Positions 44,742 to 58,199 of a stretch of 64,000 bases of DNA are shown one piece after another (the first letter of the stretch is position 1; every line of letters starts with the position of its first letter). The notes under the pieces were generated by a model. That model did not search any database. It was given only the letters and a program-made list of their open reading frames with translations, and was not told where the DNA came from. The translations under genes and the position numbers were made by a program. The DNA is from Candidatus Spongiisociaceae bacterium (GTDB lineage Bacteria; Actinomycetota; Acidimicrobiia; Spongiisociales; Spongiisociaceae), in assembly GCA_965219685.1 (NCBI GenBank), contig CBDCOH010000002.1:2336001-2400000 (forward strand). Direction: 5' to 3'.

Positions 44742-44788
44742 CTACCACAGGTCGTTAACAACCGATAACAGATAACGGATAACTGCTA
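44742..44788 (-). repeat. Degenerate heptamers starting at the clpC stop
   Basis: TAGCAGT TATCCGT TATCTGT TATCGGT TGTTAAC. Confidence 0.8.
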
Positions 44789-47278
44789 CGAGCCGGAGTC
44801 GACCAGGTCGACAGGCGGGATGTCGGGAGTGTCGACCATCTCGAAGACCAACTCCTCGCCCTCGGGGTCGGTGTCCACCACGATGGTGGTTCCAGACGGA
44901 TACTCCCCGAGCAACACCTGCTCGGCCAGCGGATCCTCCAGGTACCGCTGTATCGCCCGCCTCAGCGGACGGGCGCCCAACTCCCGGTCGTATCCCCTCC
45001 GCACCAGGAAGGTCTTGGCGGAGTCGGTCAACACGAGGTCGAGCGCCTGGGTGGCGAGCTGTTCGCGATCCCTCACCAGCAGCAGGTCGACGATCTGCTT
45101 CACCTCGTCCTCGGTAAGGCGGTGGAAAACGATCACCTCGTCGATCCGGTTGAGGAACTCGGGGCGGAAGTGGCGCTTCAACTCGTCGGTCAACTTCTGC
45201 TTCATCTTCTCGTAGCTGACCTCGTCGTCCTCCTGCTGGAAACCGACCGACCGCTTGCGCAGGGAGTGGGATCCCAGGTTGGAGGTCATGATGATCACCG
45301 TGTTCTTGAAGTCGACGGCGCGGCCCTGAGCGTCCGTCAACCGACCGTCCTCGAGGATCTGGAGCAGCGTGTTGAACACATCGGAGTGAGCCTTCTCGAT
45401 CTCGTCGAACAGGACCACCGAGAAGGGCTTCCGGCGGACCGCCTCCGTGAGTTGCCCACCCTCGTCGTATCCCACGTAACCGGGCGGGGACCCGACCAGG
45501 CGGCTGACCGTGTGCTTCTCCATGTACTCGGACATGTCGAGTTGGATGAGCGAGTCCTCGTCCCCGAAGAGGAACTCCGCCAGCGCTTTCGCGGTCTCCG
45601 TCTTGCCCACTCCCGACGGCCCGAGGAATATGAACGAACCGCTGGGCCGTTTGGGATCCTTCAGTCCGGCTCTCGTGCGACGGATGGCCCGGCTGACCGC
45701 CGAAATCCCATCGTGCTGACCGATGATGCGTTTGTGCAGTTCCTCCTCCATGTGCACAAGGCGGGCGGTCTCCTCCTCGGTCAGGCGATGAACGGGGATC
45801 CCGGTCCACTGCGCCAGCACATCGGCTATCTCGTCCTCGTCGATGACCCAGTCGTCGGCTGCCGAACCCGTGCCCAGCTCGGAGGTCCGCCTGGCGCGAT
45901 CCGACAGCAGGGACCTCTCCTGGTCCCGCAACTGCGCCGCCCGCTCGAACTGCTGGGCGGAAACCGCCTTGAGCTTGTCGTTCCTCACCGCGCTCAACTG
46001 GTCGTCGATCTGCTTGAGCTGCGGGCTGGAACTGCGCCGGAAGATGCGGTTGCGGCTTCCGGCCTCGTCGATGAGGTCGATGGCCTTGTCGGGTAGGAAC
46101 CGATCGGAGATATAGCGGTCGGCCAGGTTGGCGGCCATCTTCAGCGCACTGTCCGTGAACCGTACGGAGTGATGGGCCTCGTAGCGATCCTTGAGGCCGT
46201 GCAGGATGAGAACCGTCTCCGCAACGGTCGGTTCGTCAACATGGATCGGCTGGAACCGGCGTTCGAGCGCCGAGTCCTTCTCCAGGTACTTCCGGTACTC
46301 CTCGAGGGTGGTGGCGCCGACCGTCTGGAGTTCGCCACGGGCCAGCATCGGCTTGAGGATGCTGGCGGCGTCGATGGCGCCCTCGGCGGCGCCCGCCCCG
46401 ACCAGCGTGTGGATCTCGTCGATGAACAGGATGATGTCACCCCGGCTCTTGATCTCCTTAAGGACCTTCTTGAGCCGCTCCTCGAAGTCTCCGCGATACC
46501 GGGAGCCGGCCACCAGGGCGCCGAGGTCCAGCGTGTAAATCTGCTTGGCGCTGAGCGTGTCGGGAACCTCTCCCGCCACGATGCGCTGGCCCAGGCCCTC
46601 CACGATGGCGGTCTTGCCCACACCCGGTTCGCCGATCAGGACCGGGTTGTTCTTCGAGCGCCGGGAGAGAATCTGCATCACTCTCTCGATCTCGGTCTGG
46701 CGCCCGATCACCGGGTCCAACACGTGGTCACGCGCCATCTGGGTGAGGTTGCGACCGAACTGGTCCAGCACCGTGGACCCCGACGCGGTGGACCCCCGGC
46801 CGGACGGCGCGGTGCTGGCAGGCGCCGGATCGTCGCCCCCGGACGCCCCAGACAGCAACTGGATGACGGTATGGCGGACCTTGGGGAGGTCGGCGCCGAG
46901 TTTCTCCAGGACCTGGGCGGCGACGCCATCCCCCTCCCGGATCAGGCCGAGGAGTATGTGCTCGGTGCCGATGTAGTTGTGGCCCAATTGCAGCGCCTCG
47001 CGCAAGCTCAACTCCAGCACCTTCTTGGCGCGCGGCGTGAAGGGTATGTGGCCGGACGGGGACTGATGTCCCTGGCCGATCGTCTCGACCACCTGGCTAC
47101 GCACCGAGTCGAGACGGATGCCGAGGCCCTGGAGCGCACGAGCGGCCACACCCTCACCCTCATGAATGAGGCCGAGCAGGATGTGCTCCGTGCCGATGTA
47201 GTTGTGGTTGAGCAGCCGGGCCTCTTCCTGTGCCAGGACCACGACCCGGCGGGCCCGGTCGGTGAAGCGTTCAAACAC
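44786..47278 (-). CDS. clpC: ATP-dependent Clp protease ATP-binding subunit ClpC
   Basis: [12 protein letters not shown]-domain, GEPGVGKT and GPSGVGKT Walker A motifs, UVR middle domain, VGF loop. Confidence 0.98.
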
Positions 47279-52742: not shown

Positions 52743-53309
52743 TTAGGGAGGCAACCTGGCCGCCGCCACCTGCGAGACGGACCGGCCGCCACCACCGGAC
52801 CCCCGACCCCCGACCCGTTGCCCCCGCCACCACCGGTCCTCGATCATCGTGACATCTTGATCGGCCACACCCGCGAGCAGGTCGGACACGCGCGTTCCGT
52901 CAGGATCGCGAGCCTCGGGCCAGGCGGCTGCCAGCGGCTCCATGACGAAGCGGCGTTGCCGATAGCGGGGATGCGGTACCGAGACCTCCACCGTGCGGAC
53001 CACCGAGTCGCCGTGGAGGATGAGATCCAGGTCGATAATCCTCGGACCCCAGCGCGGTCCCCTGACGCGGCCGAGTCGCTTCTCGATGGCGAGCAGGCGC
53101 GCCACCAGATCCTCCGGTTCCAGATCGGTCTCGATCACGGCCACCGCGTTGTAGAAGGGCTGCTGCTCCACAGGTCCCACAGGAGCCGTCTCGTAAAGAG
53201 GAGACAGAGCCTGCAGCCGCCCGAGTTCCGCGAGACGGGCGACCGCCTTGCCGAGGACGGCGCGACGGTCTCCCATGTTGGAACCCAGGGAGACGGCGGC
53301 CGGCGTCAT
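52743..53309 (-). CDS. folK: 2-amino-4-hydroxy-6-hydroxymethyldihydropteridine diphosphokinase
   Basis: SLGSNMGD, YET.P, WGPRIIDLDL, PHPR...R.FV..P. Confidence 0.96.
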   Translation of the reverse strand: MTPAAVSLGSNMGDRRAVLGKAVARLAELGRLQALSPLYETAPVGPVEQQPFYNAVAVIETDLEPEDLVARLLAIEKRLGRVRGPRWGPRIIDLDLILHGDSVVRTVEVSVPHPRYRQRRFVMEPLAAAWPEARDPDGTRVSDLLAGVADQDVTMIEDRWWRGQRVGGRGSGGGGRSVSQVAAARLPP

Positions 53310-53316
53310 ACCTGTA

Positions 53317-54165
53317 TCAGTCGCGGGGAGAGTGCCGGACGATGGTCACCGCCACGTCCTCGAAAGGAACCTCGATCGGCGCCTCGGGTTTGTGCACGGT
53401 CACCTCCACCCGGGTGACCAGGCGGTTCTCGAGAACGAGATCGGCCACCCGTTCGGCGACCGTCTCGATGAGGTTCCACTGCTCGCCCGACACCCGGCCG
53501 TGGATCGCCTCCGCAAGAACCCCGTAGTCGAGGGTCTCGGAAAGGTCGTCGGTACGGCCCGCCTCCGAGAGGTCCAGCCGGGCCATGACATCCACCGCGA
53601 AGGTCTGGCCGGCGGCCCGCTCCTCGTCGGTCACTCCATGACGGGCCGGTATGCGGAGACCCTTCAACGTGATCGAGTCGGCGGAACCGCGGACGCGGAC
53701 CGGACCCGGATCGGGTGGGTCCTCGCCCACAACTCCAGCCAGCAGCCGGAGAACCTCTTGGCGAACCTTGGGGAGGTCGGCGCCGAGATTCTCCAATACC
53801 CGGGCGGCGACGCCGTCCCCCTCCCGGATCAAGCCGAGGAGTATGTGCTCGGTGCCGATGTAACTGTGACCTAGCTGGAGCGCCTCGCGTAGGCTCAACT
53901 CCATCACCATCTTGGCGCGACGCGTGAAGGGTACGTGCCCGGAAGGGGATCGGTGACCCTTGCCGATAGTCTCCTCCACCTTGCTACGCACCGAATCGAG
54001 ACGCATCCCCAGGCTTCCGAGGACCCGGGCCGCAACACCCTCACCCTCATGGATAAGGCCGAGCAGGATGTGCTCGGTGCCGATGTAGTTGTGGTTCAGC
54101 AGCCGGGCCTCGTCCTGCGCCATGACCACCACCCGGCGAGCCCGGTCGGTGAAGCGTTCAAACAC
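53317..54165 (-). CDS. folB: Fusion of ClpC-type N-terminal (Clp-N x2) domain and dihydroneopterin aldolase
   Basis: Residues 1-147 about 84% identical to ClpC in this window; then DSITLKGL...HGV..EER..GQ.F, LDY, LIE, VHKP. Confidence 0.95.
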   Translation of the reverse strand: MFERFTDRARRVVVMAQDEARLLNHNYIGTEHILLGLIHEGEGVAARVLGSLGMRLDSVRSKVEETIGKGHRSPSGHVPFTRRAKMVMELSLREALQLGHSYIGTEHILLGLIREGDGVAARVLENLGADLPKVRQEVLRLLAGVVGEDPPDPGPVRVRGSADSITLKGLRIPARHGVTDEERAAGQTFAVDVMARLDLSEAGRTDDLSETLDYGVLAEAIHGRVSGEQWNLIETVAERVADLVLENRLVTRVEVTVHKPEAPIEVPFEDVAVTIVRHSPRD

Positions 54166-54227
54166 AGCGGGCCGGCAGTTGAGGGCTCTCCGTCCCAGAC
54201 GCGTCGGCGGTGCCGAACGCCATCGGG

Positions 54228-54704
54228 TCAGCCGGAAGGAGGTATCAGTGCACGGGCGCCGGGTCCGAGGGGCCGGCCGATGGCCGACTGTATGGCCATG
54301 GTCGCGAGACGCTCATCGTCGACCAGACCCGAGTACACCACATAGCCTGCCAGGATGCCGGCCACCGCGTCATCCACGAAGTCCCGATGCACCAGCACAC
54401 GAGCCCCCGGCTTGGAAAGCGCCTCGTGGATGGTGGAGAAAGCATGCTCGATAGCGGCCGGCTCGGATTCGAGATCCACCGGGGCCAGACACACCTCGAG
54501 GCCGGCCGCCTCGTAGCTGTTGACGTTCTGGGTTCCCGGGAGCAGGGAGACTACGGTGGTGAAACCCTCATCGACCAGCCAGGCAATCTCCTCTTGGCGG
54601 CGTACCCGCCGATGCTGGAAGCCCTGCCCTCCGATCCGCGCCGAGGTGGCCAGCCGATTGCCGATCACCCAGGCGAAATCACGCGGTTGCAGTCCGGTCG
54701 TCAT
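54228..54704 (-). CDS. Dual-specificity/protein-tyrosine phosphatase-like protein lacking the catalytic Cys
   Basis: F.WVI..RLA...R.GG, GFTTVVSLL, VLVH followed by RDFVDD instead of CxxGxxR. Confidence 0.65.
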   Translation of the reverse strand: MTTGLQPRDFAWVIGNRLATSARIGGQGFQHRRVRRQEEIAWLVDEGFTTVVSLLPGTQNVNSYEAAGLEVCLAPVDLESEPAAIEHAFSTIHEALSKPGARVLVHRDFVDDAVAGILAGYVVYSGLVDDERLATMAIQSAIGRPLGPGARALIPPSG

Positions 54705-55608
54705 CACCCTTGCCCATCTCCCGCACCATAGCGTCGGCCAGCGCCAAAGCGTCGCGCGCCAGCGCGACATCGTGGACCCTGACGATCGAAGCCCCTCCGA
54801 GCGCGCAGATAGCGGCTGAGACGGCCGTGACCGCATCCCGGTCGTGGACGGGCCGCCCGGTGAGGGCGCCCAGGAACGCCTTGCGGGAGGTACCCACGAG
54901 CACCGGTACGCCCTCCGCGGCGAAGGCGGGCAATCCGTTGAGCAGGGCCAGGTTGTGAGCCGTTGTCTTGCCGAATCCGATCCCGGGGTCGATGGCGATC
55001 GCACCCCGCCGGACTCCCGCCCGCACCGCGGATCCGATCCTGCCACGGAGAAACGCACCTACCTCGCCTACCACATCGGTGTAGGTCGGGTTGACCTGCA
55101 TGGTGCGCGGGTTGCCGCGCCTGTGCATCAGCACCACACCCACCCCGGCCCCGGCGCACAACCCGGCCATCTCCTCCGCCTCCAGCGCTGCCACGTCGTT
55201 GACCACGACCGCCCCGGCCGCGATCGCCTCGGCGGCAACCCTGGGCTTCGAGGTGTCGATCGACACCCGGACCCCGGCGGCGGAGAGGCGTCCCACCACG
55301 CCGACCACCCGGCGTAGCTCCTCGGTCTCATCCACATCGGCCGCTCCGGGGCGGGTCGACTCACCCCCCACGTCGATCAGGTGGGCCCCCTGATCCCTCA
55401 AACGCAGGCCTCGATCCACGGCCCCGTCCTCGTCCATGAAGCGGCCCCCGTCCGAGAACGAATCGGGTGTAGCGTTCACCACGCCCATGATCAGGGTGCC
55501 GCGGTTGGGATCGAGCACCTCTCCGCGTACATGCCAGAGGGGCCTATCGGACCGCACGCGTGCTTCGGGCGGTCGTGGAGGCCCCGGCTCGGAGCCTGAC
55601 GGTTTCAT
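54679..55608 (-). CDS. folP: Dihydropteroate synthase
   Basis: MGVVN.TPDSFSDGG, GGESTRPG, DPGIGFGK, SRK, RVHDV. Confidence 0.97.
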   Translation of the reverse strand: MKPSGSEPGPPRPPEARVRSDRPLWHVRGEVLDPNRGTLIMGVVNATPDSFSDGGRFMDEDGAVDRGLRLRDQGAHLIDVGGESTRPGAADVDETEELRRVVGVVGRLSAAGVRVSIDTSKPRVAAEAIAAGAVVVNDVAALEAEEMAGLCAGAGVGVVLMHRRGNPRTMQVNPTYTDVVGEVGAFLRGRIGSAVRAGVRRGAIAIDPGIGFGKTTAHNLALLNGLPAFAAEGVPVLVGTSRKAFLGALTGRPVHDRDAVTAVSAAICALGGASIVRVHDVALARDALALADAMVREMGKGDDDRTATA

Positions 55609-55680: not shown

Positions 55681-56262
55681 TCAGGGGCCGGCCCGGTTTA
55701 TGAGGGCCAGGGCCTCGGCTCTCGTGGCCGGGTTGCTCCGGAACTGGCCTCGGACCGCGGATGTCTGGGTGACCGCTCCAGGCTTGCCGACGCCCCTCAT
55801 CTCCATACATAGGTGGCGGGCCTCGACGACGACGAGCACTCCGCGAGGCTTCAGCACCTCCATCAACGACTCGGCCACCTGGGTGGTCAAGCGCTCCTGC
55901 ATCTGGGGACGGCGGGCGAATCCCTCGACGAGACGGGCGAGCTTCGAGAGACCGGTCACCCTGCCGTCCGGCACGTAGGCCACATGAGCGGTTCCATGGA
56001 AGGGAAGGAGATGATGCTCGCACATCGAGTAGAAGGAGATGTCGCGTACCAGCACCATCTCCTGGTGCTCGTCGGCCACGAACACGCGGTAGAGGTCCTC
56101 CCGTGGATCGCGGTGCATCCCTTCGAAGACTTCCGCGTACATGCGGGCCACCCGGGTCGGGGTGTCGACCAGTCCTTCCCGGCCAGGGTCCTCGCCGATA
56201 GCCTTCAGGATCTGGTGCACAGCGTCTGCGATCGCCTGCTGATCGACCACCCACCCTGACAT
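55681..56262 (-). CDS. folE: GTP cyclohydrolase I
   Basis: [38 protein letters not shown]. Confidence 0.97.
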
Positions 56263-56267
56263 GGTCG

Positions 56268-58199
56268 CTACCCGCTGATCGGGGAATCCCCCGCGGTGGC
56301 CGCCGCCACACCTTCCGAAAGAGCGGGACCGGCCAGGGTCGGCGCCTGGATTCGGGGACCGGCGCCGTCGACCGTTTCCCACTTGGGCACATCGTGGAGT
56401 ACGTCGCTGATCTCCGCGGCCTGGAGGGTCTCCGAGTCGAGCAACCGATCGGCGAGCCGGTGCAAGGAGTCCATGTGAGTGGTGAGTATCCGCTTCGCCT
56501 CGTCGTGAGCCTGACCCAACAATGCCCGGACCTCATCGTCGATAGCGGCGGCGACCTCGTCGGAGTAGTCCTGCTGGCTGGAGTAGTCGCGACCGAGGAA
56601 CACCTCGCCGTGGTCCTTTCCGTACTTCATGGGACCCAGGTTGTCGCTCATCCCGTATTCCATCACCATCCGTCGAGCCAACTCCGTGGCCTTCTCGATG
56701 TCGTTGGACGCGCCCGTGGTCGGGTCGGCGAAGATGAGTTCCTCGGCGGCCCGGCCTCCCATGAGCATCGCCAACTGGTCGGTCAACTCCGAACGGCGCA
56801 TGTAGTTGCGATCCTCCGTCGGAAGTGCGAGCGTGTATCCGCCCGCCCGGCCCCTCGGGATGATGGTGACCTTGTGGATTGGGTCCGCATTGGGTAGGGC
56901 GAAGCCCACCAGAGCGTGCCCGCCCTCGTGGTAGGCGGTCACCTTCTTCTCCCGATCGGTCATGACCCTGCTCTTGCGCTCCGGACCGGCGATGACCCTG
57001 TCGATCGCCTCCTCCAGTTCCTCCGGCCCAACCCGTTCCTTGTCCCGCCGGGCTGCCAGCAGCGCGGCCTCGTTGATGAGGTTGGCCAGGTCGGCCCCGG
57101 TGAACCCGGGGGTCTGGCGGGCGACGACGTCCATGTCCACTTCTTCCGAGATGGGCTTACCCTTGGCGTGGACACCCAGGATGGCCTTCCGCCCCTTGAG
57201 ATCAGGGCGGTCTACGACGATCTGGCGGTCGAAACGTCCCGGCCGGAGCAGCGCCGGGTCGAGGATGTCGGGCCTGTTGGTGCCCGCGACGACAATCACC
57301 CCGCTCGACACATCGAAGCCGTCCAACTCCACCAGGAGTTGGTTGAGAGTCTGCTCCCGCTCATCGTGACCACCTCCGAGACCGGCGCCCCGGTGCCGTC
57401 CCACCGCGTCGATCTCGTCGATGAACACGATCGCCGGAGCGGCCGACTTGGCCTGCTCGAACAGGTCACGCACCCGGCTGGCGCCCACTCCCACGAACAT
57501 CTCCACGAAGTCGGACCCCGAGATCGAGAAGAAGGGCACTTCGGCCTCGCCGGCCACCGCCCGCGCCAGGAGGGTCTTGCCCGTTCCGGGAGAACCGTAG
57601 AGCAGGACCCCTTTGGGGATCTTGGCGCCCATCGCCCTGAACTTCTGGGGCGCCTGGAGGAAGTCCTTGATCTCGCCCAACTCCTCGATGGCCTCCTCGA
57701 GACCGGCCACATCCTCGAAGGTCACCTTGGGCTGGTCCTTCGTGACCTGTTTTGCCTTGGCCTTGCCGAACTGCATGATCCGGCTCCCGCCACTCTGCAT
57801 CTGCATGATGACAAAGATCATGAAACCGAAGATCAGAAGCCACGGAAGGATGCCTAGGACCAGATCCCAGAACCCTGGAGGCTCGGGGTCGATGAGAACC
57901 TTCACGTCGTTGGCGAGCAGGATCTCGGTGAGCGTCCCCTCGTACTCCGCCGGGTACAGAACGCGGAACTCGGCGGGAACATCCGCCACGAGCGTTCCCG
58001 GCACCAGAGCGCCTTCGATGGCATTGGAGCGCTCGAGGATCAGGACCTCGGCCACCGCTCCGGTGGTGACCACCTCCTCGAATACGGTAAGGTCGATCTC
58101 CTCCGGCTTGCTGGCCTGGTTGAGGAACCGCTGTCCCATCAGGACCAACGCCATGACCACGAGACCGTATACGAAAATGGTGCGGGTGGTCTTACTCAA
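56268..58199 (-). CDS. ftsH: ATP-dependent zinc metalloprotease FtsH
   Basis: Two TMs, [25 protein letters not shown]. Confidence 0.98.

Follow-up and report, generated by a model that had tools for sequence, protein, structure and literature searches.

The N-terminal domain (N-domain) of ClpC1 is a leading antibacterial target, namely that of the cyclomarins, rufomycins/ilamycins, ecumicin and BacPROTACs. Homologues of this domain that lack the ATPase are already known. One of them is ClpC2, which passages of two papers describe as binding cyclomarin A and phosphoarginine (pArg), oligomerising, and protecting ClpC1 by sequestration (PMC10030653, PMC13345244). Here we describe a gene in which a copy of the ClpC N-domain precedes FolB, the dihydroneopterin aldolase (DHNA) of folate synthesis, and in which the copy has stayed close to the clpC gene of the same genome. 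The gene lies in a stretch of 64,000 nucleotides, hereafter the window, that comprises positions 2,336,001 to 2,400,000 of contig CBDCOH010000002.1 from Candidatus Spongiisociaceae bacterium (Actinomycetota; Acidimicrobiia). An earlier inspection of the letters alone (the sequence-only reading) had singled it out as a FolB fused to a duplicated ClpC N-domain and proposed that it acts as a decoy or adaptor.

The fused folB gene

Within the fol operon the fusion takes the place of folB, 7 kb away from clpC. Its parts are as follows.

53317..54165, minus strand: fused folB gene, GTG start, 282 codons plus stop; identified by Pfam and TIGR00525, the single FolB match of the genome
53725..54165, minus strand: ClpC-type N-terminal domain, residues 1-147; two Clp_N repeats, eight predicted helices
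53686..53724, minus strand: Pro/Asp/Gly-rich linker, residues 148-160; predicted disordered
53317..53685, minus strand: FolB (dihydroneopterin aldolase) domain, residues 161-282 plus stop; identified by Pfam, TIGR00525 and the structural model

A Pfam search found two Clp_N stretches (PF02861; 127.8 bits, E 1.6e-37) in the N-terminal part of the protein and FolB (PF02152) at residues 165-275, where profile positions 1-112 of 113 are matched with 122.8 bits against a cut-off of 31.8 (E 1.2e-35). The FolB part also passes the folB equivalog TIGR00525 of NCBIfam (114.6 bits, cut-off 72.15) and scores about 102 bits against the M. tuberculosis FolB chain. No AAA, AAA_2, lid or D2-small domain was found by Pfam in the 282 amino acids, so that FolB stands here instead of the AAA+ unfoldase. 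Within the 4.42-Mb genome (96.7% complete) the fusion, which the sequence-only reading had called the only folB of the fol cluster, is the only FolB match, and it is one of three genes with Clp_N repeats, the others being clpC and a clpB-like gene. The motifs that the sequence-only reading had picked out are all present, GTEH with its glutamate at both sites (residues 29 and 104), EER at 181, LDY at 212, LIE at 232 and HKP at 258, and the calculated mass of 30.9 kDa agrees with its expected product of ~31 kDa. We take the active-site Glu, Tyr, Glu and Lys of FolB to be E22, Y54, E74 and K100 in S. aureus numbering; in the fusion (offset 160), E182, Y214, E234 and K259 are invariant in all 39 aligned fused proteins. 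The aldolase part is intact and would work as an ordinary FolB.

An AlphaFold2 model, made with an alignment of 39 fused relatives, has the N-domain as eight helices with block values of the predicted local distance difference test (pLDDT) of about 87-95, residues 145-160 as a disordered segment with pLDDT <50, and the FolB domain in the order beta-beta-alpha-alpha-beta-beta with pLDDT mostly 78-87. No solved structure chain covering an N-domain and FolB together was found. The locus is a genuine two-domain gene. It encodes the only dihydroneopterin aldolase of the cell, in front of which a flexible linker holds a copy, folded in the model, of the ClpC domain that receives substrates and adaptors.

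Since the two copies of the domain lie close together, it must be asked whether the gene is an assembly chimera or a gene call spanning two genes. Whole-gene coverage is indeed lacking, in that no single short-read contig spans the gene and the contigs break inside the N-domain at a motif shared with clpC, where the depth jumps to ~1000. Logan contigs from run X1 (possibly the source sample) nevertheless cover 53200-54085 and 54073-54700 with no differences, and run X5, which is a sponge metagenome from a different study, has contigs over 53203-53862 with 10 differences and over 54067-54700 with 13. Because these contigs (5.6 and 3.3 kb in X1, 5.4 and 1.9 kb in X5) reach across them, both the junction between the upstream gene, gene X, and the fusion and that between the N-domain and FolB are bridged in two studies. 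Moreover, the fused copy and clpC differ at 65 of 432 bases, and the architecture recurs in 44 database proteins and in 14 genomes, several of which consist of one to nine contigs. Mis-assembly had been judged unlikely on the divergence of the copies; with the bridged junctions the chance of an artefact becomes negligible, and for practical purposes we consider that reading refuted. The strain in run X5 is about 98% identical to the window over 660 and 634 bases. Apart from the probable source sample, the runs in which the stretch 53200-54700 occurs (X5-X8, X11-X17) are mostly sponge, coral and marine metagenomes, those with a small share of it being uninformative on habitat.

The search for the architecture that the sequence-only reading had suggested was productive. 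Both domains occur in 44 of the 120 database matches listed in a protein search, with source names in Acidimicrobiia or Actinomycetota, and a cluster of 79 members in the ESM Atlas has Clp_N in 100% and FolB in 82%. The proteins are named in public records only as 'dihydroneopterin aldolase' or as ClpC fragments. When genome contigs were scanned with the whole protein, all 80 of the matches listed were ClpC loci, covering residues 1 to about 150-180. We compared the window's own genome (G000; G numbers denote genomes) with 40 relatives, and 11 of the 41 are fused: five of the eight in the window's genus, one of three in genus g4, two of eight in genus g7, both members of family f5 and one of family f8. 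The f5 counts, and all statements on G028 and G039, rest on genomes flagged unpublished. No internal stop occurs in the fused genes of this set or of the order-wide sample that follows. In an even sample of the order, 14 of 401 genomes are fused at E <= 1e-80; these belong to three of twelve families, patchily within genera (8/28 in f1 plus the window's genome, 2/2 in f5, 3/7 in f8, none in the other nine, which include families at 0/125 and 0/124), whilst a class-wide sample of 401 genomes gave matches in the window's genome and G004 only, both surveys being samples whose threshold could overlook very divergent forms. The architecture is kept across the three families down to 55-62% overall identity. 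Absence from close relatives had been listed by the sequence-only reading among the outcomes that would refute it; the domain is present in relatives, including five of the eight genomes of the genus, although most close relatives lack it.

Two side observations concern related proteins. One fused relative, P0057, has an insertion of ~24 residues in its N-domain that repeats 'IPF(S/T)xRAKKVL', a partial tandem duplication within the copied domain. Stand-alone or otherwise attached Clp_N proteins, 34-58% identical and in open frames of 200-424 aa, occur in some unfused relatives (G027:C16, G029:C148, G035:C74, G008:C65, G011:C174) and in none of the 11 fused genomes, numbers too small for the two distributions to be called complementary.

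Descent of the copied domain

The evident donor of the copied segment lies in the same window.

46838..47278, minus strand: part of clpC (whole gene 44786..47278) that encodes the N-domain; donor of the copied segment, 85% identical in DNA

Over the first 147 residues, where about 24 differences had been estimated, the fusion differs from its own ClpC at exactly 24, I78V, P82R, K86M and L88M among them; the overall comparison gives 126/154 identical residues and 367/431 identical bases. Both genes open with GTG TTT GAA CGC, as had been pointed out, and the likeness at the DNA level begins at the start codon, with none upstream. The domain of the window is 80-85% identical to the ClpC N-domains of its relatives, compared with 62-79% to the fused domains of other genomes. 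In DNA sequence, synonymous sites included, the nearest match of each fused domain is the clpC of its own genome or sub-lineage, and amino-acid states specific to the ClpC of one lineage reappear in the fused copy of that lineage. The number of synonymous substitutions per site (dS) between fused domain and own clpC is 0.20-0.21 in G002, G018 and G039, 0.31 in G004 and 0.49 in G000; clpC orthologues compared across genera give about 0.8-1.2.

The same picture emerges from a maximum-likelihood DNA tree built on N-domain segments of 10 fused genes and 30 clpC genes, from which the fused copy of G031 was omitted on account of a one-residue indel. Fused copies pair with their own clpC in G018 (support 100/99), G004 (100/100) and G002 (98/96), the copies of G000, G007 and G001 stand beside the clpC of G000 and G007 (96/94), and those of G021 and G022 beside the clpC of their genus (97/87). 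A single clade of fused domains was rejected (log-likelihood difference 222, approximately unbiased test p-AU 1e-26). The copied domain thus evolves not as an independent lineage but like the clpC of its own genome.

Two histories could produce this pattern. In the one that we consider probable, there was a single old fusion, which would since have been overwritten repeatedly by gene conversion from clpC, under relaxed purifying selection, and occasionally deleted. In the other, the fusion would have arisen independently many times, at least six in this order, always from the clpC of the genome concerned. The pairing of fused copies with their own clpC is what repeated origin predicts, the starred branches of the tree forcing at least six changes, and upstream spacers and linkers, the latter in both length and sequence, vary from lineage to lineage. 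The domain also contains no segment in which the likeness among fused copies from different genera exceeds their likeness to their own clpC, an absence that favours repeated origin and counts against the history we prefer; since no segment keeps a cross-genus trace of a fused ancestor, it is the boundary argument alone that speaks for a single origin. That argument runs as follows. In the five genomes checked (G000, G002, G004, G018 and G039) the start codon of clpC and the beginning of the copied segment are 0-7 bases apart, and the upstream sequence of clpC, or its GGAGG site, is found in none of the 11 fused genes, even those with a dS of 0.2. Such a constant boundary without clpC upstream sequence is unexpected for repeated illegitimate events, and therefore favours recurrent gene conversion over repeated fusion. 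The insertion slot is likewise constant, always between gene X and folB. Conversion tracts would also fit the mosaic seen in G002, where blocks of 98-100% identity lie among blocks of 67-82%, and more weakly in G039; the longest runs of identical third positions are 40 in G002 (permutation p 0.008) and 32 in G039 (p 0.04), values uncorrected for 10 tests. The FolB tree (122 columns) is too weakly resolved for gains and losses to be counted on it; it needs seven changes, only two of them forced by starred branches. On balance we think repeated fusion within this order unlikely, whilst one fusion with recurrent conversion accounts reasonably well for the data.

A second origin outside this set may be represented by the metagenome proteins P0089 and P0099, a divergent Clp_N-FolB lineage whose FolB part is 43% identical. 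They combine a canonical ClpC N-domain with a long linker of the ClpC type, and at the junction a DRIE motif is repeated, features that resemble a separate event and so lend something to the case for repeated origin. A gene of this type (L149, 3456-4139, minus strand) stands in the same order, fusion-folK-...-coaX-lysS. In the gene calls of P0089 and P0099, LFERF is preceded by 13 residues that may be clpC leader read as protein; the contig ends before the start.

The distance between clpC and folB is 5-10 kb in most fused genomes. In G021 and G022 clpC and the fusion are about 370-490 kb apart and in G031 about 46 kb; the copies of these three genomes belong to the more divergent ones when set against their own clpC (dS 0.56-0.73; for G031, 70% DNA identity). 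The copies of G028 and G001 are also diverged, though clpC is only 5-8 kb away. In G001 the N-domain of clpC groups with G003, G005 and G006 (92/97), whilst the fused domain and FolB group with G000, G007 and G002 (99/94 and 99/96); the two genes (L011 and L039) are 8 kb apart on contig C66, and dS to G000 is 1.7 for clpC and 0.32 for FolB. These values point to lineages having recombined inside the locus, or else to a chimeric bin (contamination 8%).

One loss can be followed. The FolB of G013, which has no N-domain, nests among those of the fused G021 and G022 (clade 98/95), and a sensitive tblastn search recovered the first 21 N-domain codons in G013, 81% identical to those of the window and out of frame (E 9e-8). 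The locus retains the 'AAAD|P.DSITL' junction of its fused relatives, and the new start lies within the old linker. Judged from this sequence, G013 is a lineage that lost the domain by deletion. The same search found no N-domain remnants upstream of folB in the other 19 of 20 unfused loci; a remnant with two stops that a first survey had indicated in G019 was not borne out by it.

Constraint, context and possible roles

The ratio of non-synonymous to synonymous rates (omega) was taken from pairs of close fused orthologues whose path in the tree runs through fused branches only. For G000-G007 it is 0.36 in the N-domain (bootstrap 0.24-0.56), 0.24 in the FolB part and 0.00 in the ClpC N-domain; for G021-G022 the values are 0.47 (bootstrap 0.23-0.92), 0.21 and 0.00. 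These estimates indicate that the fused N-domain is under purifying but relaxed selection, which is much weaker than in ClpC and about equal to or somewhat weaker than in FolB. Neutral evolution of the copy would have counted against the sequence-only reading by its own terms; an omega of 0.36-0.47 is not neutral.

We compared 42 distinct fused N-domains with the ClpC N-domains of 80 diverse actinobacterial loci; the 39 distinct sequences among the latter are invariant at all the sites considered here. F2, R4, T6, F80, E89 and T105 are unchanged in all 42 fused domains and T30 and E31 in 40. F2, F80 and E89 are present in the copy of the window, as are both GTEH glutamates, E31 and E106, which we take to be pArg-binding residues. 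A published passage describes F2, F80 and E89 as critical for the binding of cyclomarin A (PMC10030653).

The translation signals of the fused genes are unlike those of clpC, which has a GGAGG ribosome-binding site 8-12 bases upstream in all 11 genomes, a site that the fused gene lacks. The first codon of the fused genes is ATG in six of 11 and GTG in five; it overlaps the stop of gene X in G031 and follows that stop by 4 bases in G028. The fused gene of the window has no good Shine-Dalgarno site, the nearest GGAG lying 22 bases upstream. Before the FolB part we observed no evident start with a ribosome-binding site: the adjacent valines are GTC, and the sole GTG, at residue 146, has a GGAG 2 bases upstream. 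FolB is for this reason most likely produced only as the fusion.

On the minus strand the gene order is ftsH, folE, folP, gene X, the fusion, folK, a DUF2520 protein, panC, coaX and lysS, with clpC further on. The neighbours that bear on the argument are these.

55681..56382, minus strand: folE (GTP cyclohydrolase I); the real start is probably internal to the open reading frame
54679..55608, minus strand: folP (Pterin_bind, by Pfam)
54228..54704, minus strand: gene X, about 158 aa; start approximate, overlaps the end of folP, stop 62 bases before the start of the fusion
52743..53309, minus strand: folK (HPPK, by Pfam); starts 8 bases after the stop of the fusion

The order folE-folP-folB-folK that the sequence-only reading had given is correct, with the difference that the 513-base stretch between folP and the fusion is not empty and holds the conserved gene X. 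This gene is 49-73% identical at the same position in all 20 unfused loci and is present in the fused relatives too. It matched neither a Pfam nor an NCBIfam family, and the Atlas cluster to which it belongs (429 members) is unnamed. Its features are like those of PTP/DSP phosphatases, but it reads 'VLVHRDF' where those enzymes have His-Cys. From its position one might guess at a link to the pterin branch, for example the unassigned dephosphorylation step before FolB. Between folE and folK no promoter-like site was found, and terminator-like sites occur at chance level only, which lends weak support at most to co-transcription of the fol genes. The genome encodes ClpS.

What the domain does on FolB is a question of weighing. 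The best mechanistic reading, which we put forward tentatively, is that of a mimic or decoy of the ClpC receptor carried on the FolB oligomer. Part of a published account describes DHNA as an octamer of two tetramers (PMC4176595), and since the enzyme assembles as two such stacked tetramers, a fused particle, whether tetramer ring or octamer, would display several ClpC-like receptor domains without the ATPase. These would bind a subset of the ligands of the ClpC N-domain without unfolding them, through the hydrophobic groove of F2, F80 and E89 for peptides of the cyclomarin type and through at least the first pArg pocket, so that ligands would be titrated away from ClpC and the protein would serve, in principle like ClpC2, as a buffer or decoy. 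The sequence-only reading had proposed such a decoy or adaptor, and its premises hold to the extent that the fusion is real, conserved and under purifying selection. Several observations weigh against it. The glutamate of the second pArg site, E106, survives in only 27 of the 42 fused domains (G in 14, A in one), and R8, E19, N26, H39, P79 and P82 are kept in 48-74% of them (R8 62%, N26 48%, P79 64%). I78V, P82R, K86M and L88M flank the ligand groove in the window's copy. The domain is absent from three of the eight genomes of the same genus, two of three in g4 and six of eight in g7, and has been deleted from G013. Gene conversion from a donor under strong constraint can by itself look like purifying selection. 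The GGAGG site is absent, and a weak or absent ribosome-binding site disfavours an abundant sponge. Nor was an arginine kinase of the McsB type found in the genome, at 96.7% completeness. A further elaboration, that gene conversion would keep this multivalent, ATPase-less copy on the FolB oligomer matched to the real receptor, and thus make it a self-updating mimic, seems to us rather improbable. If it were true, it would provide sponge- or seawater-associated actinobacteria with a constitutive buffer against ClpC-targeting cyclic peptides or an overload of pArg-proteins, and the architecture would have arisen at least twice, in this order and in P0089/P0099, which would argue for selection on the combination.

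It is nearly as likely that the domain is a passenger. On this account an accidental in-frame insertion of a 5′ coding segment of clpC before folB removed the start of folB, and the N-domain frame must since stay open and foldable for the sake of an essential aldolase, conversion from clpC refreshing it without any role in ligand binding. This would explain equally well the relaxed constraint (omega 0.36-0.47), the loss of ClpC-invariant sites including E106 in 15 of 42, the weak translation signals and the frequent absence of the domain. The FolB part without an evident start and ribosome-binding site of its own is what such an insertion would leave, the patchy distribution and the deletion in G013 fit a dispensable segment, and a clpC gene 5-10 kb from folB in most fused genomes would have supplied the opportunity. 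Against a passenger, however, omega is clearly <1 and of the same order as in the catalytic FolB part, 40-42 of 42 copies retain the surface residues F2, F80 and E89 and the first pArg pocket, and the architecture spans three families at identities down to 55-62%. A second, very divergent lineage, with a FolB part 43% identical, is fused as well, and many lineages retain the domain although a clean loss is possible. We consider it distinctly unlikely that the domain is instead a regulatory handle, coupling the level, location or activity of FolB to ClpC or to ClpC partners such as ClpS, adaptors or pArg-marked proteins. Adaptors do dock on the N-domain of ClpC/ClpA, ClpS is present in the genome, and the operon is shared with ftsH, another quality-control protease; yet the same operon runs without the domain in unfused relatives, nothing specific points to a handle, and we know of no N-domain-to-N-domain contact that would deliver FolB to ClpC. 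The decoy on the FolB oligomer thus remains the reading that we prefer, with the reservations given.

Comparison with known systems

ATPase-less homologues of the ClpC N-domain are known; a copy of that domain fused to FolB and evolving in concert with clpC would be new among them. Our literature searches found no paper on the Clp_N-FolB architecture or on its concerted evolution with clpC. Whatever its function, the locus shows with unusual clarity how part of an essential gene and a domain encoded with an unrelated enzyme evolve in concert, with gains, conversions and one documented loss visible among close relatives, and the fusion is a natural scaffold for studying multivalent display of the ClpC N-domain.

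The closest relatives of the fused domain are the N-domains of actinobacterial ClpC/ClpC1 (7aa4_A, 3wdc_A, 8a8u_A), to which it aligns with 235 bits and identical numbering over residues 1-147, and above all that of the ClpC of its own genome, with 82-84% identity. The fusion and this ClpC share the two Clp_N repeats, F2, F80 and E89, and both GTEH motifs. They differ in what follows, ClpC having AAA+ modules, an M-domain and a ClpP-docking part, the fusion none of these and an aldolase instead. Among other enzymes, FolB is likewise one domain of a longer polypeptide in FolB-FolK (2cg8_A, 'dihydroneopterin aldolase 6-hydroxymethyl-7,8-dihydropterin synthase'), which was compared by title and range. 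The partner there is the next enzyme of the pathway and is C-terminal, whereas here it is N-terminal and comes from the protein-quality-control machinery. Stand-alone double Clp_N proteins, compared by their titles and scores, are 8b9o_A ('Clp amino terminal domain protein', 88 bits), which we take to be mycobacterial ClpC3, and 4y0b_A ('Double Clp-N motif protein', 40 bits); no enzyme is fused to either, and both are far more divergent from ClpC than is the fused domain.

ClpC2 (9p2p_A, 8ad9_A), found in mycobacteria and other Actinomycetota, is the most instructive parallel. Like the fused domain it has no ATPase, and according to a passage of its description it keeps one of the two pArg sites, as do many fused copies (PMC13345244). 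Its domain is C-terminal and, in the same source, about 40% identical to the ClpC1 N-domain (PMC13345244), whereas the fused domain is N-terminal and scores only 92 bits against ClpC2 (9p2p), compared with 235 against the ClpC1 N-domain. Orthology with ClpC2 was rejected on these scores and on the DNA tree, which places the fused domain with its own clpC. ClpC2 also carries a DNA-binding part and represses its own promoter via CGTCAAC-n5-GTTGACG; the fusion, a gene within the fol operon, has no additional N-terminal part, and this operator has no match in the 64-kb window with up to 2 mismatches. ClpC2 is a separate, old paralogue that has not been kept in step with clpC, unlike the fused domain. 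As a precedent for an ATPase-less N-domain that acts as a decoy, which the sequence-only reading had invoked, it stands, on the part of the account that describes sequestration (PMC10030653). Such copies are a known natural way to blunt compounds directed at the ClpC1 N-domain, and an 82%-identical copy of the receptor, carried on a housekeeping oligomeric enzyme and updated from clpC, would be a new form of the same principle.

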